In this document: piece by piece, positions 41,133-59,469 of the stretch | Layout: each line of letters starts with the position of its first letter | How positions within the stretch are numbered: position 1 is the first letter of the stretch | From: an uncultured virus (IMG/VR IMGVR_UViG_3300000302_000058) | Taxonomy: Duplodnaviria; Heunggongvirae; Uroviricota; Caudoviricetes | IMG/VR virus record: IMGVR_UViG_3300000302_000058 | Direction: 5' to 3' (one strand) | Length of the DNA: 64,000 bases | The notes under the pieces: model-generated | Databases searched by the model: none | Seen by the model: the letters and a program-made list of their open reading frames with translations, nothing else | Told to the model about the DNA's origin: nothing | Made by a program: the position numbers and the translations under genes

Positions 41133-41134
41133 AT

Positions 41135-41707: not shown

Positions 41708-41781
41708 ATTATTCTCCTTTCTTTTGCTTTTTAGGCGATATTAATTATGCTACCTTTGGCCGCAATTGTCAACCATCAATC

Positions 41782-42756: not shown

Positions 42757-42809
42757 ATAACAACCTGTAAGAAAAAGGAGTCGCTTTCGCGGCTCCTTTT
42801 TCTTATTCG

Positions 42810-43706
42810 TTAAAATCGTTGTTTCGATACGCAAACAAGCGTGCCGAACCAATATTCTTCATTGGTATCCAGTTTAAAAATTTCCTTATATAGACACACA
42901 CATTTATGGTTACCGAAAACAGTATCCTTTTGCGGCCCGTAGAAAGCAAATCCGTGCATATGCCCGTGAATAAAAAAGCGATGGGGAACTTTTCGCCGCA
43001 CAAGCTCTAAAAACTTTTCCCCCTCTGTAGGAGTAAACCTAGGTCCTCCAAGAGGTGAGATATCGGTAAAGGTAGATGGGCAGTCATGCGTAAAAATATA
43101 TTGCACCTTGAGGTCGCCGTACATTTCCTGATAGTCCCATAGAAGTGACTTCACATAAGGAATATTGATATCCTCATCGGGCCACCAATCCACACCGACT
43201 GTGCGGTAAAAACGTCCTTTCGCCCTATAGTGCTTGATGCGGCCTTTCTCATTAGAGTTAGGATACACCAGGTTATCGATATCATGCGACTTAGCGCCCG
43301 CGATATGAAGCGTTCTAATACCGCAAATATCAAGGATGGCCGCATCAGATACCCAAAACACATTATCATAGGTTTTATCGCCGTAAAACGGATTAGAGAG
43401 CGTTCCAGATACGCATTTGACCAATCCATTTCCCGCACTAGGTAAGCTATAGTTGCGTATGGTTTCTGAATTATCGTGGTTTCCCCGAATGAAAACATAT
43501 GTTTCAGGTCTATTGGAAAGCCAATCTAAAATATATCTATACTCCTTATTCGGGCCATCGAACCCCAACCCCACATCGCCGCACACAACCACGACATCAT
43601 CTTTGCCGAGACAGCGCAAAGCAGGATTGCGGCTATAGGAAAACTTTTCTACAATATTTCCGTGACAATCGGCAGTTATATATAGACTCATTACTTTAAA
43701 TCCCAA
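42810..43706 (-). CDS. metallophosphoesterase
   Basis: ADCHG, CGDVG, RGNHD, THDCP, HGHMH. Confidence 0.85.
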   Translation of the reverse strand: MGFKVMSLYITADCHGNIVEKFSYSRNPALRCLGKDDVVVVCGDVGLGFDGPNKEYRYILDWLSNRPETYVFIRGNHDNSETIRNYSLPSAGNGLVKCVSGTLSNPFYGDKTYDNVFWVSDAAILDICGIRTLHIAGAKSHDIDNLVYPNSNEKGRIKHYRAKGRFYRTVGVDWWPDEDINIPYVKSLLWDYQEMYGDLKVQYIFTHDCPSTFTDISPLGGPRFTPTEGEKFLELVRRKVPHRFFIHGHMHGFAFYGPQKDTVFGNHKCVCLYKEIFKLDTNEEYWFGTLVCVSKQRF

Positions 43707-44113
43707 TCTTCATCGAAATGCTCAAGTCTCTTGGGGTCATCTTTATACGTGAGATAATCCACAAACCCCATCATCTCGTCATCATTAAATTCATGAAAGT
43801 AAATAAAATAATCATCATCTGGGTCACCAGCATAGATACGTAGTTCAACATACTCGTGGTCTGGCGTAAAACTAAAGATAGCAGTATAGTCACGACGCGA
43901 ACGGCTTTCATCGCCGCCAAACTCGTACTCAGTCTGATTCTTATCAGTATTGAATCGGTGAGTCCAAGAGCCATCGTAAATGGCACTCAGAACATCACAG
44001 CTTTTGTCTGTGTCCCATGCGGCCATTTGCCGCACAATCAAACCGACGCACTCAATCTCAGTCAGATAACACTTATCCATCTTGTACTCAATAAAAGGTG
44101 CAAACTTAATCAT
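43691..44113 (-). CDS. hypothetical protein
   Basis: GGAGG RBS before MIKFAP. Confidence 0.5.
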   Translation of the reverse strand: MIKFAPFIEYKMDKCYLTEIECVGLIVRQMAAWDTDKSCDVLSAIYDGSWTHRFNTDKNQTEYEFGGDESRSRRDYTAIFSFTPDHEYVELRIYAGDPDDDYFIYFHEFNDDEMMGFVDYLTYKDDPKRLEHFDEDWDLK

Positions 44114-44289
44114 TATAATCCTCCGAATCCTCAATACCTTTCAATCGAGATTACGGTTTTATATTACAAGTTATCGCCGCAATTGTCAAGGGATTTTTAT
44201 CTACTCTATCTCGATAAAATATATTTGCGACTTTTGTTTTTTCGTGTTATAATATATATAGAAAGAAAGGGAAAGGAAAGGAGACGCGG

Positions 44290-44550
44290 ATGCGCAAGTT
44301 CCAGATTGCAAACGTCGATTGCGACACCTTCGGCAAGGTCAACGAGGAGTTCTACGACGAGAAGCTTATCGAAGCGAAACGTCTAATCGCTATGTACGGC
44401 GATAACGGCCTTGTCATGCTCAATCGTGACCTGACCAATCTCAATCGCCGCATGATGCGCTACAAGGGCGTAGACGAGGATATGTATAATGCTATGGCCG
44501 AAGACGTTCGTGCTCTTCACCATGTTATTCAGGATGTGAACGAATGGTAG
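44290..44550 (+). CDS. hypothetical early protein
   Basis: Promoter and AAGGAG RBS. Confidence 0.6.
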   Translation: MRKFQIANVDCDTFGKVNEEFYDEKLIEAKRLIAMYGDNGLVMLNRDLTNLNRRMMRYKGVDEDMYNAMAEDVRALHHVIQDVNEW

Positions 44551-44635
44551 AACAGTTTATCGGAATGGCAATTTTCACTATCTTTTATTATCTTGTTAAA
44601 AAGTATCTATAAAATTCTAGGAAAGGATTCGCCGC

Positions 44636-44821
44636 ATGTCTCATGCCGCCATCGGTTACAAGGAGCAGGTTCTCCGCACAGGCGATATCGTCAAAGACAC
44701 CCGCATCAAAGACTCCGCCCCCATTCTTCTTATCAACACCATGCGCACGCTCGTGGTTTACGCCACTAGCGACGGGCATATCCATTATCGTCCTGCGCGT
44801 TTTTTCAAGAAGGTGAGCTGA
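44636..44821 (+). CDS. hypothetical protein
   Basis: AAAGGA RBS. Confidence 0.5.
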   Translation: MSHAAIGYKEQVLRTGDIVKDTRIKDSAPILLINTMRTLVVYATSDGHIHYRPARFFKKVS

Positions 44822-45394
44822 TGTTTGTTATGTTCGCCATCGCCGCCATTCTCCTTTTTATTTCTGCGGCCAGTGCTTTAATTATGTTTATTTTTGCAAT
44901 CAAGTACGGTTCAAACGATTTCGCTGGAATCTGCATCGGTATCTTTACCATCATTGCAGTATACATCATTTATATTCTTATTAATTTTGGAGGAATGTAA
45001 ATTGTTGAATGTGGCTTTCTTTTTCGCCGCCGCATATATCTTCTGTCTGTTCGTCTGCTATTTCGCTTATTTTCTAGTTCGCGCCGTGGACAGCTTCATG
45101 CTAGGTGAATATCTAGAGTTTATTGTAGATGTATTGTTTCTAATCGGGCCTATCGCTTGCGGTTATATCGCTTATATTATCTGTCTATAGCCGCCCCAAT
45201 AGAAAGGTAAAGTGTTATGCAAGTATTCGAGGAGATGTTTTAATGAAAGTCGATATTGGATGGCTATTTACAGCCATTTTATTTGGAGTGCTTCTTGGAG
45301 GACGGTTTACAGATTTCATCCCAGTTTTATCGCTAGTAATTGTTATCGCACACACTGTCTATACTTTTTATATTATATTTAGGGAGACATATTT

Positions 45395-45700
45395 ATGAAA
45401 GTAAAAGAAATGTACAAATCCATCAAGCGAGACTATTGGAACATATCGCAATCCAAGAGTCTAAACACTAGCTATCTTTTTCTCTTTACCGAATACAACA
45501 AGCAGACGAGAGACAAGCGTGCGGCGAAACTTAAAAAGAAGCTTGACCGCAAATGCCCCTTTGAATTTCAAGTTAATACCAGTTGGCATAATATTATCGT
45601 GTATCTAACGTCTAAGCGCAGGCCGCACATCAAGTTCAATGACCGCAAGGCTTATAAGCGTTATCTCAAGTATTATTCAAAGGAAGTGATGCCACTGTGA
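45395..45700 (+). CDS. basic hypothetical protein
   Basis: GGAG RBS, operon overlap. Confidence 0.5.
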   Translation: MKVKEMYKSIKRDYWNISQSKSLNTSYLFLFTEYNKQTRDKRAAKLKKKLDRKCPFEFQVNTSWHNIIVYLTSKRRPHIKFNDRKAYKRYLKYYSKEVMPL

Positions 45701-45906
45701 AACAAGGGACTTTTATTACCGAGAAGAACATCTACGAGTTTCTAGTTGAAGAAAGTATCTTTAGTCATAATAAATATACTATCAGTTATATTAAGAGTGG
45801 TCAACCGACAACTCACGTGATAGAGAAGCTGTTTTCCAAGAGCCAAATTGAAGATGATAGCAATGTCATCAAAGTGATTCTGGAACAGGAAGGAGAGAAC
45901 TGGTGA
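45697..45906 (+). CDS. hypothetical protein
   Basis: Overlapping start and stop. Confidence 0.45.
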   Translation: MKQGTFITEKNIYEFLVEESIFSHNKYTISYIKSGQPTTHVIEKLFSKSQIEDDSNVIKVILEQEGENW

Positions 45907-46277
45907 AACGATATCTAAGTATAGACCAAATCTATGTTGAGAAACTAGCCGAGTTGTGCGGCGAGAGTTATGCCGCCAACAACTCGCATAATCTAATTAA
46001 ATGTCAGGAGCTTAACCGTAGCGGGTGGCACTGGAAGGTAATCTACTTTGCATTGATTGACTACTTTGGCCGCATGGACGAAGAATGGAAGCAGAAGGCA
46101 GACAACGGTGTGTTGGCTGAGCATGACTTTCTTTGCGGCCAGTGGTTCATCGGTGACACGCAGGAACATCTCAATGTCCTTTATGATTGTTTGAAGACTG
46201 TAAACGCAGAGCCGCACAAGTATAAGACAGCGGAAGAGTTTTTCTTCGACTGGGAAAAGGAAAATAGATTTCGTTAG
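45903..46277 (+). CDS. hypothetical protein
   Basis: AAGGAG RBS, terminator downstream. Confidence 0.55.
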   Translation: MKRYLSIDQIYVEKLAELCGESYAANNSHNLIKCQELNRSGWHWKVIYFALIDYFGRMDEEWKQKADNGVLAEHDFLCGQWFIGDTQEHLNVLYDCLKTVNAEPHKYKTAEEFFFDWEKENRFR

Positions 46278-46463
46278 CCTAGCGGGCGGTACGCAAGTAC
46301 CGCCCCTATTTTTTATCTGGGTCTTTTAATCAAAAAATCAATGTATAGGCATAGAAAAAATGGGGTATAATTTAAACGAAAAAGGGGTCTTTATTACTAT
46401 GTATGGTACTGTGTATTCTTTTATGTATGGTACTATATGCGAGTAGGCTAGAAAGGATAAAGA

Positions 46464-47327
46464 ATGTTTGAAGGAGAACAAATAAAAAGTAAAATATATG
46501 TAGTTTGCGGTGTATCAATTATGAAAGATAAAAATTATTATCCGCAAATAACCGCATTATTTGATAATTATAGAGATAATTATAGTATGCCTAAAGACGA
46601 GTTTAGAACGATGCTTCGTTATGCTCTGGGATGGTCAGAAGAAAAAATAGAGAGAGCTATTCAAGCCGCATTAGATAATAACGTTCTTGTTGATACAAAT
46701 TTGATTACTGAAGAACTGTTGACACCTTTGTTTAGAGATGGTAGTTTGAAGAGAGATTCGTATATTACTTCTACATCATTGGCAAAAATATACTCAAGAT
46801 GTTCGTGTGAAAAATATATCACGCCGCATCATCAAGGAAATCACATATTTTCTATAACTATGACAGGAGAAACACTTTTCTACCTCTTGGAGCAAAAGAA
46901 TGATTTATTATTTAAGCTTTATATCTATTTTCGTATGAATAAATCTTATTGGACAGATTACAAAAAAGAAACATTTAATTTTTATATTAAAGGCAAAGGC
47001 GGCGCAGTAGAGAATCTAGGGTATTCGATAAAATCTGGTAGCACTGCGGACAGAATCAGAGAATGTCTTAATTTTCTTGAAAAGAGTAATCTAATTATTA
47101 TGGGGGAACCGATAAGCAGAGGCTGCAAATATGGTAAATCATTGGGCTATTGGCGTCCGCTATATGAAACAAGAGAACTGGAAAAAGAGCCGGTTTTTAC
47201 TGACTATACCTTAATGCGCATTCCTAATTTTTGTATTGATGAAGTAACAGATATCGTGTATACTAGGATGGAAGAGAAGGGTTTTCCTGAAAGTGTTCCC
47301 GAGAGATTAATGTTTGATAATATTTAA
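46464..47327 (+). CDS. putative winged-helix replication-initiator-like protein
   Basis: FKLYIYF...LGYS...IRECLNFLEKSNLI helix-turn-helix pattern; flanked by 13-bp direct repeats and the DnaA-box-like array. Confidence 0.45.
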   Translation: MFEGEQIKSKIYVVCGVSIMKDKNYYPQITALFDNYRDNYSMPKDEFRTMLRYALGWSEEKIERAIQAALDNNVLVDTNLITEELLTPLFRDGSLKRDSYITSTSLAKIYSRCSCEKYITPHHQGNHIFSITMTGETLFYLLEQKNDLLFKLYIYFRMNKSYWTDYKKETFNFYIKGKGGAVENLGYSIKSGSTADRIRECLNFLEKSNLIIMGEPISRGCKYGKSLGYWRPLYETRELEKEPVFTDYTLMRIPNFCIDEVTDIVYTRMEEKGFPESVPERLMFDNI

Positions 47328-47426
47328 AAAGTGGAGTAAAGTGGGGCTTAGTGTAGTTTTATCTTAGTTTTTGTAGTTCATTACAACACGTTTACCAATT
47401 TAAAAAACATAATATATCATCGTTAT

Positions 47427-47520
47427 TGTGGAAAACTTGTGGAAAAGTGGAAAAGTTTTCCACTTTTGTGGAAAACCTGTGGAAAACTTTTGTGGAAAAC
47501 TTTGTGGAAATGTGGAAAAC
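47427..47520. repeat. array of DnaA-box-like 9-mers (TTTTCCACA)
   Basis: Six exact TGTGGAAAA plus three variants in 94 bp; one mismatch from TTATCCACA. Confidence 0.75.
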
Positions 47521-48076
47521 TCGGATATCAAAAATAGATTATGGCGAATTATGGGATTCTGAGAGGGGTGGTGTGTGTTCCACAATTGTCAATCCTATAA
47601 CACTTGGCACTTTTAATTCCATAAAAATAACACAAAAATCCAGAAAATTCATTTTAACAATTATCAAGTGACTCCCCAAGAACTATTTTCGTTTTTAACG
47701 ACGGGAGTCTCAGGGAATTAATTTCATTTTTGACAGGAATTTCATTTTTAACCGCAAAGGTACCTACCATTATTTTCATTTTTAACCATTGGCCGCACAC
47801 CTCTATTTTCCTTTGTCTATTGGATACACTTGACTGTTCATCAACTTCTCTGTATTATGTGATATACACAAGTTCAAGGACTGAACAAGGTGCTAAAAGT
47901 TCCGCCCGAGAATTTGAATAGACAGAGGTTTTGCATTGGACTCTTGGGTTTCAGATATGCTATAATATAATCGTTCCAAGGGGAGAAGGAGCATAATCTT
48001 CACTCAGAGCACGACCGATAAAGTGTTCCCCCTTGTCTATATAATAAAGTAAGTTCCTACACTAAGGAGTCTTTTT

Positions 48077-48415
48077 ATGTCCAAGCGTACCGAGATGTTT
48101 GCCCGTATCGCCGCTGCTATGCCCGAGGATGCGGAGGTTCAGGAGTGGGTGGCTAAGGAGCTTGAGCGTGCGGGGAAGTCTTCCGCCAAGACTGCCGAGC
48201 GTCTTGATATGGCTATCGAGGTGCTGAAGCGTCACGTTGCCGAGGACGAAGCTGTGTGTGCCAAGGAGTTCGCTCACGAGGTTAACGCCCTATTCCCCGG
48301 ACAGAATTGGAATACTCGTACCGCGTCGTACTACCTGCGGTTGATGGTCGAGCGTAAACTTGCTGAGGTCGTACCGGGTGGAAAGTCCTCGCCTAAGATG
48401 TACGTGTGGTTCTAG
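48077..48415 (+). CDS. winged-helix protein, distant relative of 50058 and 52759
   Basis: AKEFA...TRTASYYLRLMVERKLAE wHTH pattern; AAGGAG RBS. Confidence 0.55.
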   Translation: MSKRTEMFARIAAAMPEDAEVQEWVAKELERAGKSSAKTAERLDMAIEVLKRHVAEDEAVCAKEFAHEVNALFPGQNWNTRTASYYLRLMVERKLAEVVPGGKSSPKMYVWF

Positions 48416-48476
48416 TTGACAACGTGGCTTGTGTGTAGTATACTATAATAGTACACAGTAAGAGAAAGGTTTCTCT

Positions 48477-48788
48477 ATGCCGTTTATGATTCGCACAAAT
48501 GTTATTGACAACTGTCCCGAGAAGGGCACCTTTGGCACTGAGACTGTGGACTATTTTGATAATAGAATTGATGCTACCAAAGCTTATAACCAGCTTATTG
48601 TGGATATTCGTAATGATTACGCTGACAGTGCTAACCGTGAGTCGATGACTCTTGTGTATCTTTATGAGTACCAGAGCCTTGACCACGGTGACCATACTAA
48701 CATCTTCATCACTTCGCTTATCAATTTTGCTTCTATTAGCTGGTATAATTACGAGCTTTTTATCGGGGTTTGCGTCAGTAGAATATAA
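48477..48788 (+). CDS. hypothetical early protein
   Basis: TTGACA..TATAAT promoter and RBS. Confidence 0.55.
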   Translation: MPFMIRTNVIDNCPEKGTFGTETVDYFDNRIDATKAYNQLIVDIRNDYADSANRESMTLVYLYEYQSLDHGDHTNIFITSLINFASISWYNYELFIGVCVSRI

Positions 48789-49172
48789 AAAAGATAAAAG
48801 ATTAGGGTAAAATCCGTGCGGTTTTACCCTATTTTGTTACAGATTCAGATACTTTTTATATAAAAATTATATTAAATTAATACAAAATTGCCTCACATCT
48901 GTCCTCTTTTGGATAAGATGTGAGGCTTTTTTTATAAAAATAAATTGTTTTGTGTAAAAAATTTATAAAAATATATATTATATATGGGAATTTCTGTGAA
49001 TTTTTTGCCTATAGGGCGGTTTTCGCTTGACAAAAAAATCCCACGGGCGATTGTGAGCGAGCCTATAGAGGTTTTTCGCTTGACAATTTCAAAAAACCCG
49101 GGGAGTTATGAGAGAATCGCCTATAGAGGGCTGTTTTGCACTTGACAACGGGAAACCCCTGCTCACGAGGGG

Positions 49173-49186
49173 CGAACACTCGTTCG
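49173..49186. promoter_or_regulatory. LexA (Cheo-type) SOS box
   Basis: CGAAC-ACTC-GTTCG; similar boxes at 49350 and 53506. Confidence 0.6.
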
Positions 49187-50057
49187 TGTGGAGTTGTGGA
49201 TTTTCCATGCTTTCCCCCTTTCCCCTGTTGACTTAACTATTATACCATGCTAGGGGGTCAAGTGGCAACGCACAAGCAGCCGGGTACGTCAAGTGTTAAA
49301 AATGAGAATTCACAAAATTTACAAGTTAGCCTCGGTTAACTTTGAGGGTAGAACAAACGTTCGGTTTCAGGGGTAGGGCTATTGCAATTACCCTTGCTAG
49401 TTCCGCCCGCCGTCGCTCTCGCTAGACGCTGATATAACGGCTTGTTTACCTCTCAGACGTTGCGGTATTGCCGCCCGTGCCGTGGTACCGATTAACAATA
49501 ATAATAATGGTTTGCGGCAATAGTGCAATAGGTTCACAAACTCTACACAGTCGCGTTAGAACGATTGTAAGCCCGTTTAAGGCGTTGGAATAGTCCACGG
49601 GTAGGGGAATAGCGGGGCAAGCGTTAAAACGCTTTAGAATGGCTTAGAACGGCTCTAGTGACGTTTCCCACGGTTTAGGGTATCGCCGCGCGGTTAGCGT
49701 TTGTTATTTTTTTTAGATAGCGTGATATCGTGAAATGCTTTGTGAGCCATTCTAAGCACGTTTAAGACGTTTTAACGGGTTGGCGGGTATCCTAGTCCAT
49801 AGAAACAATTTTAGGGGCTTAAAACGGCTCCGGTAGCCCTGCAAGGGCTACCCGGCGTGGGCTTTGCCCACGGCGAAAATAAGTATGCAGGTTTTGTGAA
49901 AGTCCTTGACGTGGGCGGGTTCTAGTGTTATCCTTAAAGGGAGGGAGGGCGGGGAATGGACGTTAAAAGTTAGCCGGGGTTAACTTTCACTATATCAAAA
50001 CGCCCACCCTCGGGCGTGGATACCTGCGAGGGTGGGCGGCGCTAGGCTAGTCTAGTA

Positions 50058-50507
50058 TTAGTTGTTCTCCTTAGTATCCTCAGTCTTAGCCTTGCGCTTG
50101 CGGGTCGGCTTAGGCGCGAACTCAAAGCCCACGGGGGCGTAATGTTTAACGCTCCACGGCTCCGGGGAAACCGCGATAAGTCCCATAGCCACCGCCTGAC
50201 GCAGCAGGGCACCAACCTTGCGAGCCGTGAGCGGCATACCGTCCGGGTCGGTGTAGAATTCCGCGATATCCGCAGCGGTGAATTCCGCATTGCGGGCGGC
50301 AATCTCATCGGCAAGTTCGGTAGCAATCTGGTGGTTGCGCAGCGTTTCGGCTGACGGCTTGCTGACGCGCTTACGATTGGCGGACTCCACCATCTTGATA
50401 ATCGTGGCGGTAACGTCGGCCACGTCCGCACCCATAGCGTCGGCGATAACGTCGGCGATGCCCTCAGCGGCGAGAGTGTTAATAATCTGCTTACGAGTGA
50501 TAGCCAT
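50058..50507 (-). CDS. winged-helix DNA-binding protein (paralog A)
   Basis: KPSAETL..TAADIAEFYTDPDG..RKVGALL..WSVKHYAP shared with 52759. Confidence 0.75.
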   Translation of the reverse strand: MAITRKQIINTLAAEGIADVIADAMGADVADVTATIIKMVESANRKRVSKPSAETLRNHQIATELADEIAARNAEFTAADIAEFYTDPDGMPLTARKVGALLRQAVAMGLIAVSPEPWSVKHYAPVGFEFAPKPTRKRKAKTEDTKENN

Positions 50508-50929
50508 AGTAAATTCCTTCCTGTTTGTCTGATACTATATGCTGTTATCAAATGTTGCAGTTGGCAAGGGCCGAGGTTCCATCCTTCCATCCGTGGGGCC
50601 TTGCCGTTCCCCGTCCCCTTTGGACAATTACAGTATGCCATGTGTGGGGCTAGGTGTCTAGTAGAATGCTAGCAGCTCCGGTGAACGGTAGGTTTTCGCC
50701 GGTGAACGGTCGGTGTTGCCGTAGGCAACCCCGGCGTTCGCTACGCGAACGGCGATTCCCGCAGGTAGATGCCCCAGAAAAAAATAGTTGTGTTGATTCT
50801 GTGAAACTACTTGACGTGGGTACCGTGAAACGGTACCCTTTCAGGGCGTGGAGGGTGGGCATAGGCCGCACAAGTTAGACTAGGGTAACTTTGTAGGTAA
50901 AGTAAAGCGCCCCGCGTAGGGGCGCTAGA

Positions 50930-51649
50930 CTAAAGCGTCTTTAGAGTTTTTGCCGCATCGCGCCAACCTTGCCCCATAGAGTGCCGGGTTTTAGTCTTGC
51001 GTCGGCGCGCCATGGTTAAAATAAAGTCCTCGGTTAGCGCGTCAGACAATGCGGTATGGTCCTCAATAAAACTAATATCGTCGGTCAGGTAGCGATATAC
51101 CGTTTCCGCGCTAGTGCTTGGGTTGCCCTTGCCGGTAAGGAAACCATGTTTAAGGCACCACTTAACATATTTTCTGGTGCTAGTGATATTGCTAGAGTAG
51201 TCCCAAATATCCGCAAACTTTACGCCATAGGGGAGCAACTTGTATCCCGGAACGAACCCATTCGAATAGGTTTCCAAAGTGTTACGCAAGGTTAACATGT
51301 CAAAGCGGGCATTATAGGCCCAAACCTTGCGCACGTCGTTGTCCCGAATGTCGCGCGTTAGCGTTTGCCACGCCTCAAGAAACGTTGCTATCGTCCATTG
51401 TCCGCTATCGTCCATCCTCATACCCTCATGATAGCGCGGCAACTTTGACGCATAGTAGGCGCTATTCATAACGTCGTGCTTACTAAACGTGTCACTAATA
51501 GCGAAGGACCGTTGCGCGATACCCTCACCATCTTTAACAACTATCCATCCCATATCATAAACTAGACTGTTCTCGGGTTCGGGTTGGTTCGTCTTGCGTG
51601 CGTACTGGTCCGCTGTTTCAGTGTCCAACACGATATAAGCTCTACCCAT
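50930..51649 (-). CDS. DEDDh 3'-5' exonuclease
   Basis: VLDTET, AYNARFD, HTALSDA. Confidence 0.85.
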   Translation of the reverse strand: MGRAYIVLDTETADQYARKTNQPEPENSLVYDMGWIVVKDGEGIAQRSFAISDTFSKHDVMNSAYYASKLPRYHEGMRMDDSGQWTIATFLEAWQTLTRDIRDNDVRKVWAYNARFDMLTLRNTLETYSNGFVPGYKLLPYGVKFADIWDYSSNITSTRKYVKWCLKHGFLTGKGNPSTSAETVYRYLTDDISFIEDHTALSDALTEDFILTMARRRKTKTRHSMGQGWRDAAKTLKTL

Positions 51650-52758
51650 CGTTACCACCTCACTTGCGCCGGTTGTGGTGTGGCGCGCTCACCTTGCCGC
51701 ACGTTGCGGCACGTGACTAGCTTAGCATGTTTAAGCATACAACGGTGTGGAGGTTTTATGGAGAAACTACCAAAATTGAACTTGTGAAGAAAATATGATT
51801 GTCAAGTTCAATTTTAGTTCAATTTATCCAATAGATAGGCAAAAATATACATATGTAAAATTTGTGTGCGGTCTTGACAAACCAGATTTTCTGTATTTCC
51901 GCAGATAAATGGGGTAGTTCAATTTTGAACTTGGTTCAAATACATAGTTCAATATGTTTGTCAATAGTTCATTTTATTCATTTTACGGCGATTGTGAAAG
52001 TTTTGTGAATCACAAAAAATCCAAACTTGACAAAACCGAAAAAACAATTACACTATAGGGTGTGGAGGGCGGGGAATGGACGCAAAAAGTTAGACGAGGT
52101 TAACTTTATGACCGCGAGTTAACCTAGGTTAACTTTAAAATGGCCGTCACTTCCATTGTACCATAAAAAAACTTTTGTGTCAATAGTGAATTTTATCTTC
52201 ACAAATTCTACACGAAAAAATAGTCATACCCCATCTTAATAATAATAATAGGATAGGCGAAAAATCCTGTCAAGTACTTTTTTTAAAATTCACAAAAACA
52301 ACATAATTAAAGACACGTCACTTCCATTATACCATAAACACGCTCCAACAGTCAATAGAAAAATAGTTATTCATATTATCTTCACATTTGGACGCTCGTG
52401 GGGTTGATCGAGTCGATACTGCATACATGCCTGAAATAGGCCGCACTTGCGCGTGCTTGATGCCCTTGTACGGCCTTGTAATAGCTATTTTAGGGCACGT
52501 TTTGTATAATGGTGTACTTATTCGGGCCATGTATGTATATCGCCGTAAACGCGATTCTAGCGGCCACGTTTACCTGCGGAAACGTTGTTTTTGTAAAATG
52601 CGGCCCAGAAAATGAATAATGTGCGTTTTGTGAAAGTGCTTGCTTGAAGCGCTTCAACATGTTATCATGTCAAGGGAGGGAGGGCGGGATAGGGCAACAA
52701 AGTTAGCCTTGGTTAACTTTTACGGTAAGGAAAAGCCCCGCATGTGCGGAGCTGTCGG

Positions 52759-53241
52759 TTACTCGGTCACATCCTCGGGCGCGTCCGTGTCCTCGGCCTT
52801 AGCCTTGCGGACGCGCTTGGGCTTCTCGGCAAACTCCACGCCAAGCGGGGCATAGTGGGCCACGCTCCACTTGTACGGAGATTTAGCGATAAGCTCCTCA
52901 CGAGCCGCACGAGCAAGGGCAGCGCCCACCTTGCGAGGGTTCAGCACGTTACCTTCGGGGTCGGTGTACACGTCGGCAAGCTCGGCAGCGGTCATCTCCT
53001 TGCCGCGCGCGTTCAGCTCCTCCACCAGCTCGGCCATGATAGCGCGATTCTTGAGCGTCTCGGCGCTAGGCTTGGACTTGCGCGGACGGTGCATCGCGGT
53101 GTCGAAGTCGGCGACGGCTTGACGGGTGCCCTCGGGGTCAAAGCCCAGAGCGTCGGCAGCGTCCCAGATGGTGCAGCCGTTCTCAGCGGCATAAAGGACG
53201 ATAGCGGACAGGGACTTGCGGGAAACGGTGGTCTTGGTCAT
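52759..53241 (-). CDS. winged-helix DNA-binding protein (paralog B)
   Basis: KPSAETL..TAAELADVYTDPEG..RKVGAAL..WSVAHYAP; AAGGAG RBS. Confidence 0.75.
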   Translation of the reverse strand: MTKTTVSRKSLSAIVLYAAENGCTIWDAADALGFDPEGTRQAVADFDTAMHRPRKSKPSAETLKNRAIMAELVEELNARGKEMTAAELADVYTDPEGNVLNPRKVGAALARAAREELIAKSPYKWSVAHYAPLGVEFAEKPKRVRKAKAEDTDAPEDVTE

Positions 53242-53644
53242 AATTTTCTCCTTCGTCTGTATGACCGTGCAGTTTCGCGTCCGTGTGCCTTGGGGCTTGC
53301 GGTGTGTTCCCTTCTCTTCGGCTCCCCTTCGGACAACTATGGTATGCCATAGGGTAGGCCACAGGGCAAGCGTCACGTCGCGCCTTCACATTTTCTACAC
53401 ATTCTAGCGTTTGTGTTAGTTTTGTGTATGGTATTGACTTGGGGGACGTGGAACGTTACCATAGGGACTAGGGTGGGCGGGAAAAACACGCACAGGCCGC
53501 ACACCAGAACACCAGTTCGATAAAATGTTCTAAAAATAGACAGCATTTCCATTGTACCATAAAAGACTACTGAAAAGCAATAGCCGCACACAATCTCCAC
53601 ATTCTTTTGGACAAAATAAAAGCCCCCTTTCGGGGGCTGTTGGG

Positions 53645-53875
53645 TTAGTATTCCCAAAGCGTTTTCCAGTTCTGTTGTACCTTAATGCTTTCAATGCAAG
53701 TATAGTCGTTGCAATCCCGGTCGTACTTGCCCATAATCTCCTGCACGTAATCCCACGCATCGCGCTTGGTCCCAAAAGCCTTGACGATGGTCTTCTCGTC
53801 CTCATAGTCAAAGCAGGTATCAGCCAGAAAAACGATGGTAGCACGGACAAAGTAGGGATTCTCGAAGCGGGTCAT
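53645..53875 (-). CDS. hypothetical early protein
   Basis: Own promoter, RBS and terminator. Confidence 0.55.
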   Translation of the reverse strand: MTRFENPYFVRATIVFLADTCFDYEDEKTIVKAFGTKRDAWDYVQEIMGKYDRDCNDYTCIESIKVQQNWKTLWEY

Positions 53876-54342
53876 GGCGTGTGCCTTTCTCTCTGTTCCT
53901 CTTGGACAACTACAGTATAGCACTACCCAACGGGATAACGCAAGAACTTTTTAGAACTTTTTTAGGGCGATTCTCGGCGTTGTTGTAGATAACCCCGGTT
54001 AGCCCGTAGGGGCTACAGAATCCGTTTTAAGGGCTTGGATTGGCAGGGCTAGGTACTTACTCCAACCTTGCCTTGAAAGCCCGTTAAAAGCCCTTAGAAT
54101 GGCTCTCCTAGTCGATCAAGTAGTAGAGACGGATGTGGCACTACAGACCAGTAGACAAAAAAATGCCCCACCATAAGGTGGGGCGTTGGTGGTTATTCTC
54201 CACATTCCAAAAGTTAGTCAGGGCTAATAAAAAAATAGACAGATTTGTAGATTCATTGACCGGTATGGCTCCCGCCCCGGCACAATATTATTATTGCAAA
54301 AAAATACCCCCGCGTCAAGCGAGGGCAAGTTCTCCATATCTT

Positions 54343-54573
54343 CTACACAAGTCCGTGATAGCGTCCGATACACTTGTTGGTGCGCTCACGCCTGCTATTC
54401 GTCATGGCTTTCATAGCACGACGATGGACTTCTGCACGCCGCACGCGCTCAAGGCCCTGCTCGTGCTTCTCGTCCTCGTAGTCCGTCCAAAGCATCCAAA
54501 CACTGAAAGCAAGGACGCCATACATAACGATGAACACGGGAATGTTCTGAATAGGCAAGCAACCGAACAACAT
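54343..54573 (-). CDS. small membrane protein
   Basis: Hydrophobic segment; AAAGG RBS. Confidence 0.45.
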   Translation of the reverse strand: MLFGCLPIQNIPVFIVMYGVLAFSVWMLWTDYEDEKHEQGLERVRRAEVHRRAMKAMTNSRRERTNKCIGRYHGLV

Positions 54574-54612
54574 TTCAGTACCTTTCTCTTGGGGTCGTTG
54601 CGTAGCTTTATT

Positions 54613-55077
54613 TTAGCACGTCTTTCTAATCTGTGCAACTAGAAATCTGTAAAGACTTTTGGGGTATCGAGCTTGCCCGCCTGCACGCCTGAAAGCGTCT
54701 CGGTTAGGCTGTTCATCATCAAACAACACCGTGTTACGAACGTCTTTGACAACGAGTTCCTTAGGCGTGCCGTACTCAACGATACGCACGTCCTCGATAG
54801 CGGGCAAATGCTCACGTAGCCAAAGCATCTTAGCGGCCTGTGTAGCGGTAAAATAGGCGTGCGGAATATCCCCCTTAGCAGTCCACGATACCACGCACAC
54901 ATGCCCGCCAGCGTCCTTGTACAGCTCGATCAAGGCGTTAATAACGTCCGTGTCGGTAAGGGTATCGGCTTCAAAGTAAGGGCTTGCGTCGTGGGCTTGC
55001 AGGGCTTCTAGCCAATCACGCACGCCGTAAAGGTCACAAATACAACCGTCAAGGTCTAAAGCGATTGTTGGCAACAT
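54613..55077 (-). CDS. HAD-superfamily phosphatase (5'(3')-nucleotidase-like)
   Basis: DLDGCI motif I, K..WL..HLP, LFDD. Confidence 0.8.
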   Translation of the reverse strand: MLPTIALDLDGCICDLYGVRDWLEALQAHDASPYFEADTLTDTDVINALIELYKDAGGHVCVVSWTAKGDIPHAYFTATQAAKMLWLREHLPAIEDVRIVEYGTPKELVVKDVRNTVLFDDEQPNRDAFRRAGGQARYPKSLYRFLVAQIRKTC

Positions 55078-55446
55078 AGTGCTTACCCCGTTCTGTTAGT
55101 AGGTTACTAGAACACTACCATAGTACCATACCCATACACCAATGCATCACCATCACATAATATACACATCTGTGTATTGTGTAGGCTTTGTGTAGAGCCT
55201 TGTGCTTGTGGTGCTACTAGTGTACTATGTACTTAGTCGGTAGCCGAGGACTTGCCCAATACGGTTAGCGGAGCTAACCGTGCAAAGCATAGGCAAGGCA
55301 GAGGCATAGAGGAACCGTCGCACCACGCTACAGGAATGTGTGTTTAATTGTGGAGGAATTGTGAAGACAAATTCGTGCTTGCATAACGCTTGCCAATGGG
55401 GCATAATATAAGTGTCAAGAGGGACACACACAGAAAGGAACAGACC

Positions 55447-55728
55447 ATGACTACCTACTTCCAGATGCTCGCCAACGCCTTCGCCATCGCCAAGTCCGCC
55501 ACCACTACCGCCGACCTTGAGGATGCCGTGTACGACTTTCTGAACGTGCTGTGGGGCACGCCGAGCGACCCGACTTATCAGACGTTCACGAGCGTGCTTA
55601 TCCCCAATCTGGCGAATTGCGTTCGGTTCTGCGAAACCCCCACGGATTTGGAGACTATCGCGAACGGAATGCGGAACACATATTTTCAGGGGGTTGGCGT
55701 GGGCATCGCACAGGGCGAGAATCACTAG
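55447..55728 (+). CDS. hypothetical early protein
   Basis: Promoter and AAAGGA RBS. Confidence 0.55.
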   Translation: MTTYFQMLANAFAIAKSATTTADLEDAVYDFLNVLWGTPSDPTYQTFTSVLIPNLANCVRFCETPTDLETIANGMRNTYFQGVGVGIAQGENH

Positions 55729-55770
55729 GCGAACACGTGTTTTGGGGGGGGGCGCTCCGCGCTCCCCTCG

Positions 55771-55786
55771 CGTTTCACGTGAAACA
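55771..55786. promoter_or_regulatory. parS site
   Basis: CGTTTCACGTGAAACA, 15/16 match to TGTTTCACGTGAAACA, intergenic. Confidence 0.75.
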
Positions 55787-56481
55787 TCCTAGTACCGTAT
55801 GAGGTTTTTGTGTTTTTTGTTGGGGGGGGGTGGTTTTACAAGTTTTGTGTTTTTTGTGTGAAAAAGGGGCTCGCCCACGACAAACTCACACTCCCAAGCA
55901 AAATTCCTCTACTCTATATACTTAGCCCTACGTAGGAAAAGACAACGTTTTACGCTCGCTCCCATCCCAAAAGCAACCAAGTTGGTAACGTTGTCGAAGG
56001 CATCCTTAATATTATCCGTGCTTTCGCGGCACAAGCGACTGACTTGTTCACTTCCCTGCCTAATCAGTGTGAGAAAGGATATAATCCTCCCGCCGCACAC
56101 CCCTTCACCAAGAGCTGCTAGATATAACTATCTCGTTACTCGACCTCTTGGATAAAAGGTGTAGACCCGATTATTCGTCTCAACCTGTGGCGGAACTTTA
56201 TACGATTGTCAATCGTGCCGACCGGGAACGGCCATATCGTTAGGGGGGGGGGTATATTTTACAATTTCAATTTAGCTGTTACGCCAATTGGAAATATTCG
56301 CAATCTGTGCCAGAACCGCACATCCAATAGCAATCGCTCCGAAGATGAACAGAGCTGGATTGTATATAATGAACAGATAAATGAGTGCGGCTACTACAAT
56401 AAGAAAAATCATGGTATCCTCTATTCATACTAAAGAATGATATACTCGTTGAATTCAGGAACTTCTTCTGGATAAAGTCTG

Positions 56482-56757
56482 CTAGTTTTCACTGTTATAC
56501 ACTTCGTAAAGCGTGCCAAAGCCGCACTCGTTAGCCGCCACCTCTGCGATGAAGTGTGCGTTGTACTGCTCATCCGCACACAGAATCGCCTGTGGGTCGA
56601 TTAGGTCGAACCAACTGGTCTTTCGGAGCTGGTCTGCGGCCCATTCTGTCATGTCATTAAGTGTATCGGCATCGTTGGGAAGACCATTGACCCCAAAATG
56701 AGTATAGGTGGCGAGTTGAATGTCAAACAGTCTGTTCGCAATATCTACATAATCCAT
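56482..56757 (-). CDS. acidic hypothetical protein
   Basis: Own TTGACA..TATAAT promoter and AAAGGA RBS. Confidence 0.55.
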   Translation of the reverse strand: MDYVDIANRLFDIQLATYTHFGVNGLPNDADTLNDMTEWAADQLRKTSWFDLIDPQAILCADEQYNAHFIAEVAANECGFGTLYEVYNSEN

Positions 56758-56987
56758 ACACTATCCTTTCTCTTGGTTTACCTATATTATAACACATCAT
56801 AAAAATATTGTCAAAGCACGTAAAATTGGATATTAAATTTAATCAATATCTAATTTTACACACTTTGCGGGCAAAAAACGATAAATTTTGCCGCAATTCT
56901 ATTATATTTTAATAGTTCTTGGATTGTCAACTGCAATTTTTGGGAATAATTAAGACAAAGTAAACTCTATTAAAGGAGGATAATGTT

Positions 56988-58100
56988 TTGAAACTTGACT
57001 ATTCCCTAAAGACTCTTGAAGAGCGTAAGGCTCTTGTACAGGATATAGTGGATTCCAGTGAGAATCTTTCGTCTAAGCAACTAGGATATATGACAGATTA
57101 TCTTCTCTTCACGGCTGATTCAAAACAGACTGGTAAAGAGAAGAAGAAATCTCACCCCATCATCACGAAGAATAGAGATGTTACTATCTCTAAGCGACAG
57201 ATTTCTTTGGAGGATACAATAGCGTCTTTATCAAATGGCGAGGATGGGCTGTATTCTATGATAGTGGATGATAAGGATATGCTTCTTGATAATCGACAAC
57301 CGATTACTCAAGATGATATTGATAAGATTCCCGGTATCAAAAACAAACTGGATACCATCGAAGTTCTTAAGACACAGCTTGATAAGAGCGATGGTCGTGA
57401 GCGCTTTCTTATCAAACAGCAGATTATCTCGACGTACAAGGAAATCTATTCAATCAAGAGTTCGTATATGAATGCGGTTACAAAGGCACACGTCAACTCT
57501 CAAATCAATCATATGTCGCACATGCCGCTAGTCGAGAACATTACCATTGATGAAAACGGTATGCCACACAGCGATGGCGTGATTTCTCTTTTGCGGCCAG
57601 ACCATGTTGCCTTTCTTCTTAAATACTATAGTAAGCTGAAAGGTAGCTGCTGGGACGATTTGAACAGCGATATGCACTGGCTGTTGATAGATTTAGAGGA
57701 ATTGGTCGTGCGGGCCTTGCTACCGGAAAACGAAGTTCTTTACGACCTTCTGGTTTGGGAGATTGACGGTCTTACCGGTGTCGAGATTGTGCGGCAAATG
57801 GAACGTAAGTACGGTATCGTTCATTCTGAGCAATACTTCTCTACTTTATGGTGCAAGCGAATTCCGAAGATGATTGCGGAAGCTGCCCAAAAGAAATGGC
57901 TGATTTGGTACTACACCTTTAAATGCCCGGAAGAAGCTCAGTGGAAGATTTGTAAGACTTGCGGCAGGAAGCTTCTCGCTCACCCGCTCTTTTTTCATAA
58001 GAACACATCCAAGGACGGTTTTTATTCTAAATGCCGCGATTGTCGTTCTAAGAAAGGAAAGGTGAGAGCGAACAATGGAACAACAGAAGAAGACGTGTAA
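56988..58100 (+). CDS. phage protein with C-terminal Zn finger (possible late regulator)
   Basis: CKTCG...CRDC; helix-turn-helix-like segment; first gene of packaging operon. Confidence 0.65.
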   Translation: MKLDYSLKTLEERKALVQDIVDSSENLSSKQLGYMTDYLLFTADSKQTGKEKKKSHPIITKNRDVTISKRQISLEDTIASLSNGEDGLYSMIVDDKDMLLDNRQPITQDDIDKIPGIKNKLDTIEVLKTQLDKSDGRERFLIKQQIISTYKEIYSIKSSYMNAVTKAHVNSQINHMSHMPLVENITIDENGMPHSDGVISLLRPDHVAFLLKYYSKLKGSCWDDLNSDMHWLLIDLEELVVRALLPENEVLYDLLVWEIDGLTGVEIVRQMERKYGIVHSEQYFSTLWCKRIPKMIAEAAQKKWLIWYYTFKCPEEAQWKICKTCGRKLLAHPLFFHKNTSKDGFYSKCRDCRSKKGKVRANNGTTEEDV

Positions 58101-59469
58101 GGAGTGCGGCAAAACCAAGCCAATTAACAAATTTTGGCATCGTAAGAACGGTACTCTTTTTGATGTTTGTAAAGAGTGTGCTTGGAAATATATCGACAAC
58201 AAGAAACCGAACACTTTTCTGTGGATTCTAAAAGAAGCCGACGTTCCGTTCATCGAGGAACGTTGGGTTGACTTGTGCCGCAAAAAGTATAACAAAGACC
58301 CGCATCACTTTGGTTGTAGTTCTGTTATTGGTACTTATTTACGAATTATGTATACAAAAGGTTTTACCAACTACAACTATAGTGATACCTTAGAATTGAA
58401 CAAGAATCTAATCGAAGACCGCAAGCGTGCGGCTGAAAGTAAGGCAAACGCCGCAGAACGAGCAAAGCAATTTGAAGAAGAGGTTAACGAGGTTTCTTTT
58501 TCCGGCGACCTTTTTAAGAACGCCGTGCCGGATATGGCACCAAACGAAGAATATGAGATTGAAGAAGTTACTGAAATGGAGCTTGCTGGGCCGGAACAGC
58601 CTTTGCCGCCAATTGATTATCGTAATACGCCAGTTGCTCCACAAGGCGTTAAGATTGAATATTCAAATCGTGTTCCAAAAGAACAAAAGACAACTGCCCC
58701 TACGAGCATCCAATCTTACGATGTTGTAGATGTTGACGAGCAATCCATTCTAAATGATTTGACTCCGAATGATGTTCAATATCTTGCAATGAAGTGGGGT
58801 AGTAGTTTTAAACCATCTGAATGGGTAAAGATGGAAGACATGTATCAAAAGTATTGCGGTGAATTTGAGATTAGTGTAGACCGTGAAGCTGTACTTATCT
58901 CGATGTGTAAAACAAGTGTCAATATGCAGCGTTGTCTTGATTCTGGAGATGCGGCCAATGCTCAAAAGTTCTCTTCTATGTTTGACCAACTCCGTAAGTC
59001 AGGCGCATTCACTGAGGCACAGAAGAAAGAGGAAAAAGACCATTATCTTGACTCTCTTGGAGAGCTGGTTGCAACTGTTGAGAGAGAAGGAGGGGTCATT
59101 CCTAAGTTTGACTATGAGTTTGAGGTGAATCCTGACAAGGTTGATTTAACCCTCAAAGATATGAAGTCATATACTTATAATCTTGTTAAGAACGAAATGG
59201 GTCTTGGTGACCTTATCGAATCTTACATTCAGAAACTTGAACAGCAAATGGAAGAAGAAAAAAATAAAAGCTTGTCTGATGGTCTTGTCACAAGTAAAGC
59301 AGAAGAGCAACAAATTCAAAACGATGAATTTGCTGACGATTGGCTTAATAATCTTGAAGATTCTATTGCGGCTGATGCTGATGAACTTTACGCTAAGATT
59401 GGCGATGAAGATGATAATAAATATATCGAAATGATTCGTGCCAATCAACAAGAGGACGGAGAGGAATAA
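58075..59469 (+). CDS. putative terminase small subunit (N-terminal Zn finger)
   Basis: CKEC...CKEC; position directly before the large subunit. Confidence 0.5.
   Translation: MEQQKKTCKECGKTKPINKFWHRKNGTLFDVCKECAWKYIDNKKPNTFLWILKEADVPFIEERWVDLCRKKYNKDPHHFGCSSVIGTYLRIMYTKGFTNYNYSDTLELNKNLIEDRKRAAESKANAAERAKQFEEEVNEVSFSGDLFKNAVPDMAPNEEYEIEEVTEMELAGPEQPLPPIDYRNTPVAPQGVKIEYSNRVPKEQKTTAPTSIQSYDVVDVDEQSILNDLTPNDVQYLAMKWGSSFKPSEWVKMEDMYQKYCGEFEISVDREAVLISMCKTSVNMQRCLDSGDAANAQKFSSMFDQLRKSGAFTEAQKKEEKDHYLDSLGELVATVEREGGVIPKFDYEFEVNPDKVDLTLKDMKSYTYNLVKNEMGLGDLIESYIQKLEQQMEEEKNKSLSDGLVTSKAEEQQIQNDEFADDWLNNLEDSIAADADELYAKIGDEDDNKYIEMIRANQQEDGEE

Follow-up and report, generated by a model that had tools for sequence, protein, structure and literature searches.

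Ordered modules of predicted promoters and putative operators with host-type LexA and parS sites in a gene-poor island of an uncultured large phage

Cluster A mycobacteriophages carry stoperators, asymmetric sites that lie genome-wide and are bound by a known phage repressor, and the host-takeover module of phage SPO1 carries many strong early sigmaA-type promoters and terminators. Four groups of published work describe the systems closest to the one reported below: the promoter-early stem-loop (PeSL) cassettes of T4-type phages (PMC2839356, PMC4122927); the SPO1 module itself, with 24 small genes in a 13,185-bp terminal redundancy (PMC10531801); phi29, a virulent phage whose genome has five parS sites, the targets of Spo0J, together with 0A boxes, the targets of Spo0A (PMC2731898); and GIL01, a prophage that does not integrate and is kept repressed by the LexA of its host (PMC4551915, PMC11511902; LexA-governed phages are also treated in PMC6182141). 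Here we analyze a 64-kb stretch of DNA from an uncultured virus (IMG/VR record IMGVR_UViG_3300000302_000058), hereafter the window, and within it a gene-poor island at positions 47400-55830 (some counts were made over 47000-57000). By sequence, the island belongs to none of the PeSL, SPO1, phi29, and GIL01 systems. No paper on the repeats of this clade was found in the literature, in which no search was made with the motif itself.

The island contains predicted cis-regulatory modules that are ordered and oriented, that occupy one region per genome in related phages, and at which gene cassettes are gained and lost between close relatives. The comparison set consisted of related phage contigs of ~125-145 kb (genomes G001-G005 and loci such as L012, L019, L022, L025, and L039-L041); G001, a 143,581-bp IMG/VR contig, has 94% identity to the window. 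We hold it to be somewhat probable, taken as a whole, that the phage is a ~143-kb non-integrating siphophage of gut Bacillota, that the region is an early or control hyperplastic gene-cassette island in which the modules act as recombination points, and that its LexA boxes and parS site are genuine inputs from the host.

The initial annotation of this DNA had described a gene-poor region, and the gene poverty is real. Curated genes cover 3513 of 8431 nt (41.7%), leaving 58% noncoding, and a greedy cover by open reading frames (ORFs) of at least 60 aa reaches 0.63 in the island; in four stretches elsewhere in the window, it reaches 0.83-0.91. The region had been credited with few small genes; it is indeed poor in genes, but it holds nine small ones (three on the plus strand and six on the minus strand), not a handful. 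GC content across 49-56 kb is 0.45-0.565, compared with about 0.40 around it, and because the island is syntenic, with the same GC rise (to 0.45-0.58), in the independent assemblies G001, L039/L040, and L041, it is not an assembly artifact or chimera. The genes up to about 43.7 kb point leftward and those from 56,988 onward point rightward, with the island in the divergent zone between them; cumulative GC skew turns near the island, with a minimum at about 44-45 kb. As first described, the region borders the terminase operon. The large terminase subunit TerL (59469-61250) shares 52% identity with the TerL of an unannotated gut phage fragment and 41-44% with its counterparts in ~134-142-kb Enterococcus phages, in Geobacillus virus E3, and in phage phAss-1; near-identical DNA was not found among GenBank phages. 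One of the island proteins has a record on a 142,796-bp contig. Like the SPO1 module, the island is a block of small genes of roughly 9-13 kb, of unknown function and near a genome landmark, in a large Bacillota phage, and it too has many strong predicted early sigmaA-type promoters and terminators. Unlike that module, it has a far lower gene density and contains operator palindromes, LexA boxes, and parS, and no homology to SPO1 genes was seen, most of its genes being without a PHROG function.

A 20-bp palindrome, AAGTTARCC-NN-GGYTAACTT, here termed PAL, occurs at six sites in the window, all within 49324-52718, whereas 0.47 would be expected and none of 100 shuffled sequences reached this count. 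Across the clade, 21 stretches on 13 IMG/VR contigs of 17-145 kb carry it, with 91 distinct sites among the loci examined. Each genome has one PAL region: the five sites of G001 fall within 74.7-78.1 kb (3.4 kb out of 143.6 kb), the 11 of G004 within 98-106 kb, and the nine of G005 lie across its contig ends, and G002 and G003 have one each, while the reversed-PAL control gave no match in any of the five. The stoperators of mycobacteriophages are likewise many copies of a short operator in intergenic spacers, placed to block transcription; PAL differs from them in being palindromic and confined to one island.

The order of the elements is clearest in relatives L019, L022, and L025. There, a canonical module runs from the terminator of the previous gene through one or two PALs (36-37 bp apart), the motif GGCCGGCC, and a TGTGnAG-N4-TGTGAAG repeat to a TTGACA-17-TATTAT promoter, the conserved leader AATTGTCAGAGGGG, and finally a small gene with its ribosome-binding site. 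Fourteen units in the relatives have a PAL followed within 100 nt by the TGTG repeat, and most of them continue to promoter, leader, and start codon. A predicted promoter of a different class, type A, has the form TTGACn-17-TAC(C/A)nT and the G-rich start GGGAGGGAGGGCGGGG and was found in 16 units in five phage lineages; in 13 of the 16, a PAL follows the G-rich start after 12-17 nt. Predicted type B promoters start with AATTGTCnnAGGGG, and their leader motif is also present in relatives. The window contains the following units of these two classes, together with a facing promoter group (D numbers denote repeat families).

49906-49986, plus strand: type A unit 1, TTGACG-17-TATCCT with the G-rich start GGGAGGGAGGGCGGGG, then PAL; families D1 and D12
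49967-49986, plus strand: PAL of type A unit 1, from the motif scan
50811-50891, plus strand: type A unit 2, with PAL at 50872-50891; directed at the 3' end of gene 50930-51649
52027-52135, plus strand: type A unit 3, with two PALs (52087-52106 and 52116-52135)
52640-52719, plus strand: type A unit 4, with PAL at 52700-52719; directed at the 3' end of gene 52759-53241
53434-53519, plus strand: type A unit 5, with a LexA-type box in the PAL position; directed at gene 53645-53875
52183-52155, 52273-52245, and 52355-52326, minus strand: three strong tandem promoters, 11/12 matches each; family D7
50614-50660, minus strand: type B promoter block of the 149-aa gene, TAGACA-17-CATACT followed by GTAATTGTCCAAAGGGGA
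50614-50641, 53323-53350, and 53896-53923, minus strand: type B -10/leader blocks preceding three minus-strand genes; family D9

Type A unit 1 is directed at the 3' end of the minus-strand gene 50058-50507, and altogether four of the five units aim at 3' ends of minus-strand genes 40-130 nt away. Unit 3 stands face to face, at about 100 bp, with the three minus-strand promoters.

Two of the elements in this module had been assigned to host regulators by their resemblance to a consensus. The direct repeats were called OmpR/PhoB-like; in sites of the PhoP/OmpR type, a hexamer is directly repeated at a spacing of about 11 bp, next to a weak -35 element or in place of it. Repeats of the form TTCACA-N4/5-TnCACA are present in the island, as are several further direct-repeat families, and in relatives the TGTG repeat lies just upstream of the promoter. 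Many of these units have a full TTGACA -35 element, which is not the typical activator-dependent layout, and the regulator assignment is doubtful. The palindromes were called DtxR/MntR-like; the DtxR/IdeR/MntR operator is a 19-bp palindrome with GTTAG-S-CTAAC at its center. In all six window PALs and in the clade consensus, the GTTAG/CTAAC arms are 6 bp apart (CC-NN-GG) instead of 1 bp, and PAL is therefore not a DtxR site; it is a clade-specific element with a fixed place in the module. The palindromes themselves are real and non-random, but the DtxR identity fails. Given the fixed module order, we consider the repeats to be an upstream element of the promoter and the palindromes to be operators or boundary elements.

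Nor was PAL seen to mark a host-genome regulon: 596 Gb of genome contigs contained 23 exact matches, versus about 17 expected by chance. Five of the contigs with exact matches carry other island motifs and look like phage fragments within metagenome-assembled genomes (MAGs). These fragments (L064, L063, L052, L045, and L047/L048) bear the labels Bacilli, Nanosyncoccus, Clostridia, Anaerovoracaceae, and Parabacteroides; they are probably mis-binned phage contigs, from which no reliable host can be read.

Promoters are in excess in the island. Over 47000-57000, we counted 34 sigma70-like sites, compared with 13.9 +/- 3.2 in shuffled sequences; in the preceding 20 kb (27001-47000), 58 sites compared with 51.1 +/- 8.2 show no excess, and the excess is therefore specific to the island. 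The report of many sigmaA promoters was thus borne out, and several strong ones have no gene behind them. Further repeat families, ATTTCATTTTTAAC and AGTTCAAT among them, are also enriched and localized, as had been proposed, and every motif family listed in the initial annotation is present above chance. The corresponding features are listed below, with three-way identity being that among the window, G001, and L041.

47682-47815, plus strand: direct repeats ATTTCATTTTTAAC, 4-5 copies (four at 47686-47786), before the tandem promoters; family D10
47830-47858 and 47937-47966, plus strand: tandem sigmaA-type promoters before the 112-aa gene
49003-49150, plus strand: three direct repeats CCTATAG...TTTTCGCTTGACAA, 81% three-way identity
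49239-49268, minus strand: strong promoter, TTGCCA-18-TATAAT with TG, no gene behind it
51775-51953, no strand assigned: AGTTCAAT repeat cluster, five of the nine window copies

The ATTTCATTTTTAAC repeats are kept in G001 and L041, and G003 has a similar run of about five copies of TTTTCATTTTCAA.

Promoters without a gene raise the prospect that the real products of the island are small RNAs with a G-rich 5' end and a PAL hairpin. In type A units, the promoter is followed by the conserved G-rich start and a hairpin-capable palindrome; five of the six window PALs read as G-U on the plus strand, and a plus-strand terminator-like hairpin (50917-50943) lies about 100 nt downstream of one unit. We nonetheless rate this explanation as highly improbable. 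A 2-nt loop does not allow the central pair of PAL to form, although this pair is kept as a palindrome in the DNA. In the canonical modules of relatives, PAL precedes the promoter and thus lies in spacer that is not transcribed, and a plus-strand terminator is missing from most type A units. Rfam gave no match at gathering scores (44-60 kb) and none even at an E value of <=1 (47.3-56.9 kb), and a 412-nt segment bounded by G runs, considered as a structured RNA, folds no better than shuffled sequence (z-scores of -0.47 and -0.55).

Parts of the noncoding DNA are conserved. Three-way identity is 88% over 47560-48076 (direct repeats and tandem promoters), 90% over 48416-48476, 87% over 48789-49002, and 81% over the type A and PAL unit, while in two neighboring genes it is 67-76% at third codon positions and 92-96% at first and second positions. 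Because identity in these noncoding blocks (81-90%) exceeds that of third codon positions, we conclude that they are under purifying selection. Conservation at this level speaks against decay, in which the promoters and operators would be functionless orphans left by gene loss and rearrangement. Decay would account for the window type A units that lack the downstream type B promoter and gene seen in L019 and L025, for the many indels among relatives, and for degenerate sites such as the window copy of the G001 parS. It would also account for 49151-49875 (about 700 nt), where three-way identity is only 62-67%, at or below the third-codon rate when indels are counted as mismatches; this stretch may be drifting. 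On the other hand, the convergent type A layout recurs in L012 (3/3), and in the window, by the greedy-ORF rule, two of the five type A units face curated minus-strand ORFs (50058-50507 and 50930-51649), while of the other three, two are opposed by curated minus-strand genes and the third by three minus-strand promoters. Lineages with few genes in common keep the architecture of the island. That the island is largely decaying DNA is, in our estimation, quite unlikely.

The modules are also the places where relatives differ in gene content. A cassette at 50893-52042, comprising the DnaQ-like gene and the AGTTCAAT repeats, is absent from G001 and L041, and it lies exactly between two type A-PAL units, both of which match G001 units. 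Contigs from four gut metagenome runs (chicken and other gut; relatives 85-99% alike) join across cassettes, one joint running from 49631 to 50731 with 25 other letters between and another from 50222 to 52958, between two paralogs; in such contigs, joints with short sides are unreliable. The T4-type PeSL cassettes are similar in that composite terminator/promoter repeats stand between small, variable, mostly unknown genes of a hyperplastic region, with indels and replacements between close relatives bordering on the repeats. They differ in host phylum and phage family and have no sequence relation to the island, whose modules are larger and multipart (20-bp operator, GGCCGGCC, upstream repeat, and two promoter classes with leaders) and include host-type LexA boxes. 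Many modules of the window, furthermore, point against genes, and over half of the island is noncoding.

Two other kinds of repeat were seen in the spacers. Short GC-rich hairpin modules (GGTAGCCC...GGGCTACC, GGCGTTCGCTACGCGAACGGCG) at 49826-49870, 50708-50760, and 53990-54020, and an L041 insertion at about window position 49636, are inserted or deleted between relatives in the manner of miniature mobile hairpins. A family of inverted and direct repeats, CGTTAAAACG...TTAGAATGGCTC (D15, D20, I2, I3, and I11), joins the distant spacers 49622-49777 and 54010-54105.

The LexA (Cheo) box of Bacillota is the palindrome CGAAC-N4-GTTCG. In 64 kb, GAAC-N4-GTTCG has four distinct sites, three of them in the island; the expectation is 0.23 per window, and 0 of 100 shuffles reached the count; one of the three island boxes is perfect on both sides.

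49173-49186, no strand assigned: LexA-type (Cheo) box CGAACACTCGTTCG; two boxes at this place in G001 and L041
49323-49342 and 49351-49363, no strand assigned: pair of PAL (first interval) and LexA-type box (second interval), from the motif scans
53507-53519, no strand assigned: LexA-type box in type A unit 5

In the related genomes, all such sites are in or beside the PAL cluster (six in G001, five each in G004 and G005, and one in G002). They are often paired, 15-17 bp apart, and their spacers differ between lineages (ACCA, ATTT, ATCT, and others); L022 has six GAAC-N4-GTTC boxes within about 350 bp. Profile searches for the LexA DNA-binding domain and for Peptidase_S24 found each in 0 of nine related genomes. 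The proposed LexA-type boxes were confirmed as a feature that, in four related genomes, lies almost exclusively in the island. In G001 and L041, a second PAL-like site stands exactly where the window has the LexA-type box at 49351, and since the same swap is seen in type A unit 5, PAL and the LexA-type box are interchangeable parts of one module. As in GIL01, host-type SOS boxes are present in an early control region of a non-integrating Bacillota phage in which no CI-type S24 repressor was found. GIL01, however, is a 15-kb tectivirus with its boxes in promoter P1 and a LexA cofactor, gp7, whereas the boxes here are downstream of promoters.

A parS-like site lies at the right edge of the island, where G runs bracket it and the 412-nt ORF-free stretch. 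The consensus of parS is the 16-bp palindrome TGTTNCACGTGNAACA.

55771-55786, no strand assigned: parS-like palindrome CGTTTCACGTGAAACA, 15/16 match, the sole site in the window
48832-49002, no strand assigned: very AT-rich spacer, with a degenerate copy of the G001/L041 parS at about 48944-48959
55744-55752 (G9), 55822-55830 (G9), and 56243-56252 (G10), no strand assigned: three G runs, the sole long homopolymers in the window

With at most one mismatch, parS is present in four of ten genomes, namely the window, G001 (a perfect site), and G002 and G004 (the 15/16 variant of the window). Every one of these sites is in or beside the island, and reversed-pattern controls gave none. L041 has the parS of G001 in the alignment, and G005 has a copy with two mismatches. 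A profile search for ParB_N was negative in all five related phage genomes. The parS of the initial annotation therefore stands, and on comparative sequence evidence, its reading as a site for host ParB survives, as does that of the LexA-type boxes. The literature found on host-type parS in phage genomes comprised the phi29 work and phage-plasmid papers. The likeness to phi29 is that of a Bacillota phage without ParB (in the relatives) that has host-type parS and, at its promoters, host-regulator boxes, which phi29 uses as inputs and not as decoys. The differences are that there is one parS, in 4/10 genomes, that Spo0A boxes are not enriched (8 versus 8.6 expected), and that the regulator boxes are of the LexA type. 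Among the related contigs, L019 opens on a run of G and then has about 44 T in a row.

At the left edge of the island is an array that had been described as DnaA-like boxes.

47427-47519, plus strand: iteron array, nine copies of TGTGGAAAA(C) at <=1 mismatch, one of them inverted, mostly 11 bp apart; family D8

Exact TGTGGAAAA has six copies in the window, all within this array, compared with 0.83 expected, and the array is thus real and enriched. Its assignment to host DnaA, on the other hand, fares poorly in the comparison. The strict DnaA box is the 9-bp TTATNCACA, which occurs once in the window (at 2254) and not at all in the island; the iterons TTTTCCACA match it at 8/9 positions, and the two nearest lineages lack them or have changed versions, G001 having TGTTGAAAAC/TGTAGAAAAT in their place and L041 having no array. 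Outside the window, the array is found in one of the five related genomes, G003, with nine copies, one of them on the other strand. The direct terminal repeat ("DTR") that IMG/VR gives for G003 is a 55-bp assembly overlap inside these iterons. G003 shares the iteron without a detectable homolog of the 287-aa protein encoded beside the window array, and G001 has different iterons beside a neighbor that is 29% identical to that protein.

Parts of this evidence are shared with a reading in which the island is the maintenance or decision region of a phage that is non-integrating temperate, lives in a carrier state, or hitch-hikes on spores or host segregation; it overlaps the reading we favor and goes beyond it in what it says on lifestyle. 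Here, the iterons would serve as an origin or centromere, parS would pass the phage genome on to the ParB system of the host, and the LexA boxes with the facing promoters would form an SOS-released switch. Consistent with this, tyrosine integrase (Phage_integrase) and serine recombinase (Resolvase) were each found in 0 of nine related genomes, the LexA-type boxes are island-restricted and parS occurs in phages in which ParB_N was not found, the 11-bp-spaced iterons adjoin a possible winged-helix protein, the convergent promoters at 52027-52183 are separated by about 100 bp, the GC skew minimum is close by, and phi29 (PMC2731898) and GIL01 (PMC4551915, PMC11511902) are precedents. We nevertheless judge this joint account to be unlikely, although the lack of an integrase makes it attractive. 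There is one parS per genome, and six of the ten genomes have none at <=1 mismatch; the iterons change or vanish in the nearest relatives; no ParB_N was found, and no ParA-, CI-, or gp7-type gene was identified, although those were not searched for; and Spo0A boxes are at their expected number. The scan of genome contigs yielded no isolate genome with an episomal phage, with only MAG-binned fragments resembling the island, and with its 143 kb, its 26 tRNAs, and its genes for nucleotide metabolism, the phage has the look of a virulent one.

A further-reaching version would make the island, 8-10 kb long in a widespread clade of ~140-kb gut Bacillota phages and more than half noncoding in the window, a sensor of host state that consists of DNA sites. 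Each early gene would be opposed by convergent antisense promoters under the control of host LexA boxes and PAL; the genome would be hooked to the segregation and replication machinery of the host through parS and, in some lineages, through iterons that resemble DnaA boxes; and a reversible carrier or episomal state would be sustained with no integrase, ParB, or repressor encoded by the phage, with high copy number also draining LexA. We regard this combination as speculative and decidedly unlikely.

The initial annotation had gone on to propose that the island is a decoy array that, on entering or replicating, titrates host LexA, DnaA, ParB, metal and phosphate regulators, and RNA polymerase, host takeover being achieved by DNA sequence alone. 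Sites do outnumber genes, 58% of the island is noncoding, promoters are in excess, several of them without a gene, and host-type LexA boxes and parS are present in phages in which no LexA or ParB was found. Some relatives have denser arrays, such as the six boxes of L022, and at hundreds of phage copies, three to six boxes per genome could matter. Yet the motifs stand in a fixed order and orientation in promoter/terminator modules beside genes, which a sink would not need, and a single genome copy offers only three LexA-type boxes and one parS. Among the regulators to be titrated, DtxR is lost with the half-site spacing of PAL, DnaA with the absence of a strict box from the island and the loss of the iterons in the nearest relatives, and PAL was not seen as a host regulon. 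Nothing shows titration; the ordered, oriented modules point to cis-regulation of phage transcription. The decoy proposal is, accordingly, one that we think very unlikely.

Under the reading that we favor, that of a cassette island with host inputs, host RNA polymerase would read the type A and type B promoters early in infection, and PAL would be the operator for a protein. The five type A promoters would fire antisense at the 3' ends of minus-strand genes or head-on against their promoters. A PAL or LexA box between a type A promoter and the opposing gene would then act as a gate, so that convergent transcription would determine expression. Both the LexA-type boxes and the one parS would be genuine host-protein sites used as inputs (the SOS state and ParB-dependent positioning or segregation, respectively) and not as sinks. 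The iterons, next to the 287-aa gene, would form a site that resembles an origin or a centromere and whose specificity varies.

Several observations weigh against this reading. We infer promoter use, start sites, and antisense transcription from sequence. The strong promoters without a gene, together with 58% noncoding DNA, are more than a plain cassette array needs, and the poorly conserved stretch at 49151-49875 does not behave like the blocks around it. The LexA-type boxes of the window lie about 37-60 nt downstream of predicted promoters, not over them, and ACCA is the spacer in many of the boxes; an alternative binder could be a phage protein whose specificity resembles that of LexA. The reversed-pattern LexA control was not clean in G001 (five control matches), so that clustering, and not the count, carries the LexA argument. 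The winged-helix proteins of the island were considered as the common binder of PAL and rejected: matches to them were found in one of five and in two of five PAL-bearing genomes, and because they are not conserved across these genomes, they cannot have that role. Finally, the window and G003 share an iteron and no detectable neighboring protein, and a common trans factor for the iterons, DnaA included, is conceivable.

Two genes outside the island touch on how its sites may be read. A 382-aa protein (38987-40135, minus strand) matches phrog_1211, labeled as a 2-amino-type adenylosuccinate synthetase (PurZ-like), with an E value of 1.2e-44, and matches solved PurA enzymes only at about 1e-11; a metallo-phosphoesterase (phrog_1649) is encoded near it (42810-43706, minus strand). 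The phage may make 2-aminoadenine DNA, which would alter the way in which host proteins read the island sites. Two plus-strand genes before that of TerL, 56988-58100 and 58075-59469, match phrog_5767 (labeled as a sigma factor; E value of 9.5e-33) and phrog_3314, and both also give weak matches to zinc-ribbon/HNH-type PHROGs (E values of 8.5e-6 to 0.005). If truly sigma-like, the product of 56988-58100 could recognize the unusual TAC(C/A)nT -10 element of the type A promoters.

The genes of the island and its left border are as follows.

46464-47327, plus strand: 287-aa gene just upstream of the iteron array, family unassigned, possible winged-helix protein
48077-48415, plus strand: 112-aa gene, GC content of 0.57, 94% identical in G001
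48477-48788, plus strand: 103-aa gene, with a promoter before it (48416-48444) and a terminator after it (48803-48831)
50058-50507, minus strand: 149-aa gene, helical N-terminal part and C-terminal winged helix
50930-51649, minus strand: 239-aa gene of the DnaQ-like exonuclease family (phrog_20187, E value of 2.7e-30; phrog_192, E value of 2.7e-6)
52759-53241, minus strand: 160-aa gene, paralog of the 149-aa gene (46% identity)
53645-53875, minus strand: 76-aa candidate gene
54343-54573, minus strand: 76-aa candidate gene, hydrophobic
54613-55077, minus strand: 154-aa gene, 5'-deoxyribonucleotidase-like (phrog_2643, E value of 3.1e-7; NT5C, 22.5 bits, below the cutoff)
55447-55728, plus strand: 93-aa candidate gene with a TGTGGAG-N4-TGTGAAG element upstream

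The 149-aa and 160-aa paralogs have 491 homologs (30 representatives at 50% identity), none with a Pfam match, and many of the 149-aa homologs listed are on ~140-kb contigs; by sequence, the two belong to a small phage-restricted family. An AlphaFold2 model of the 149-aa protein has a predicted local distance difference test (pLDDT) score of 93.5, and its best Foldseek rows are PadR/LmrR/ArsR-type winged helices at non-significant E values of 0.06-0.3. Judging from this model, it is plausible that the two proteins are DNA binders for lineage-specific repeats. The 112-aa protein, compared with this family by hhalign, is not a relative (probability of 1%); its codon positions are 96/96/76% conserved among the window, G001, and L041. 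For the 287-aa protein, neither Pfam nor PHROG gave a match, and none of its 13 homologs has a Pfam match. Its AlphaFold2 model has a pLDDT of 55.3; Foldseek returned nothing at an E value of <=0.001 and only weak rows of winged-helix, RepA_N, or DnaD type, and a protein language-model look-up gave leads at chance level (155 shared features). The homolog in G001 that is 29% identical lies at the same place.

Alternative genetic codes (TAG read as Q, and table 4) opened no convincing long ORFs in the island. The window has 26 tRNA genes at 16897-25337 on the minus strand, most of them in one tight array and none of them a suppressor, and the genes examined gave no sign of recoding. TAG is recoded in phages of the related phAss-1 group (PMC10607447).

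The comparison offers a caution on assigning regulators by consensus resemblance: of five such assignments, two failed the comparative test and two passed it. It also yields defined cis-elements, namely PAL, the TGTGAAG repeat, and two promoter classes with conserved leaders. The phage is possibly a second case, after phi29, of a phage that uses host ParB/parS without a ParB of its own. If the reading we favor is true, an abundant group of gut phages shows the early-gene organization of a large Gram-positive phage, in which swappable cassettes stand behind a multipart module that accepts more than one kind of operator, host LexA boxes among them.

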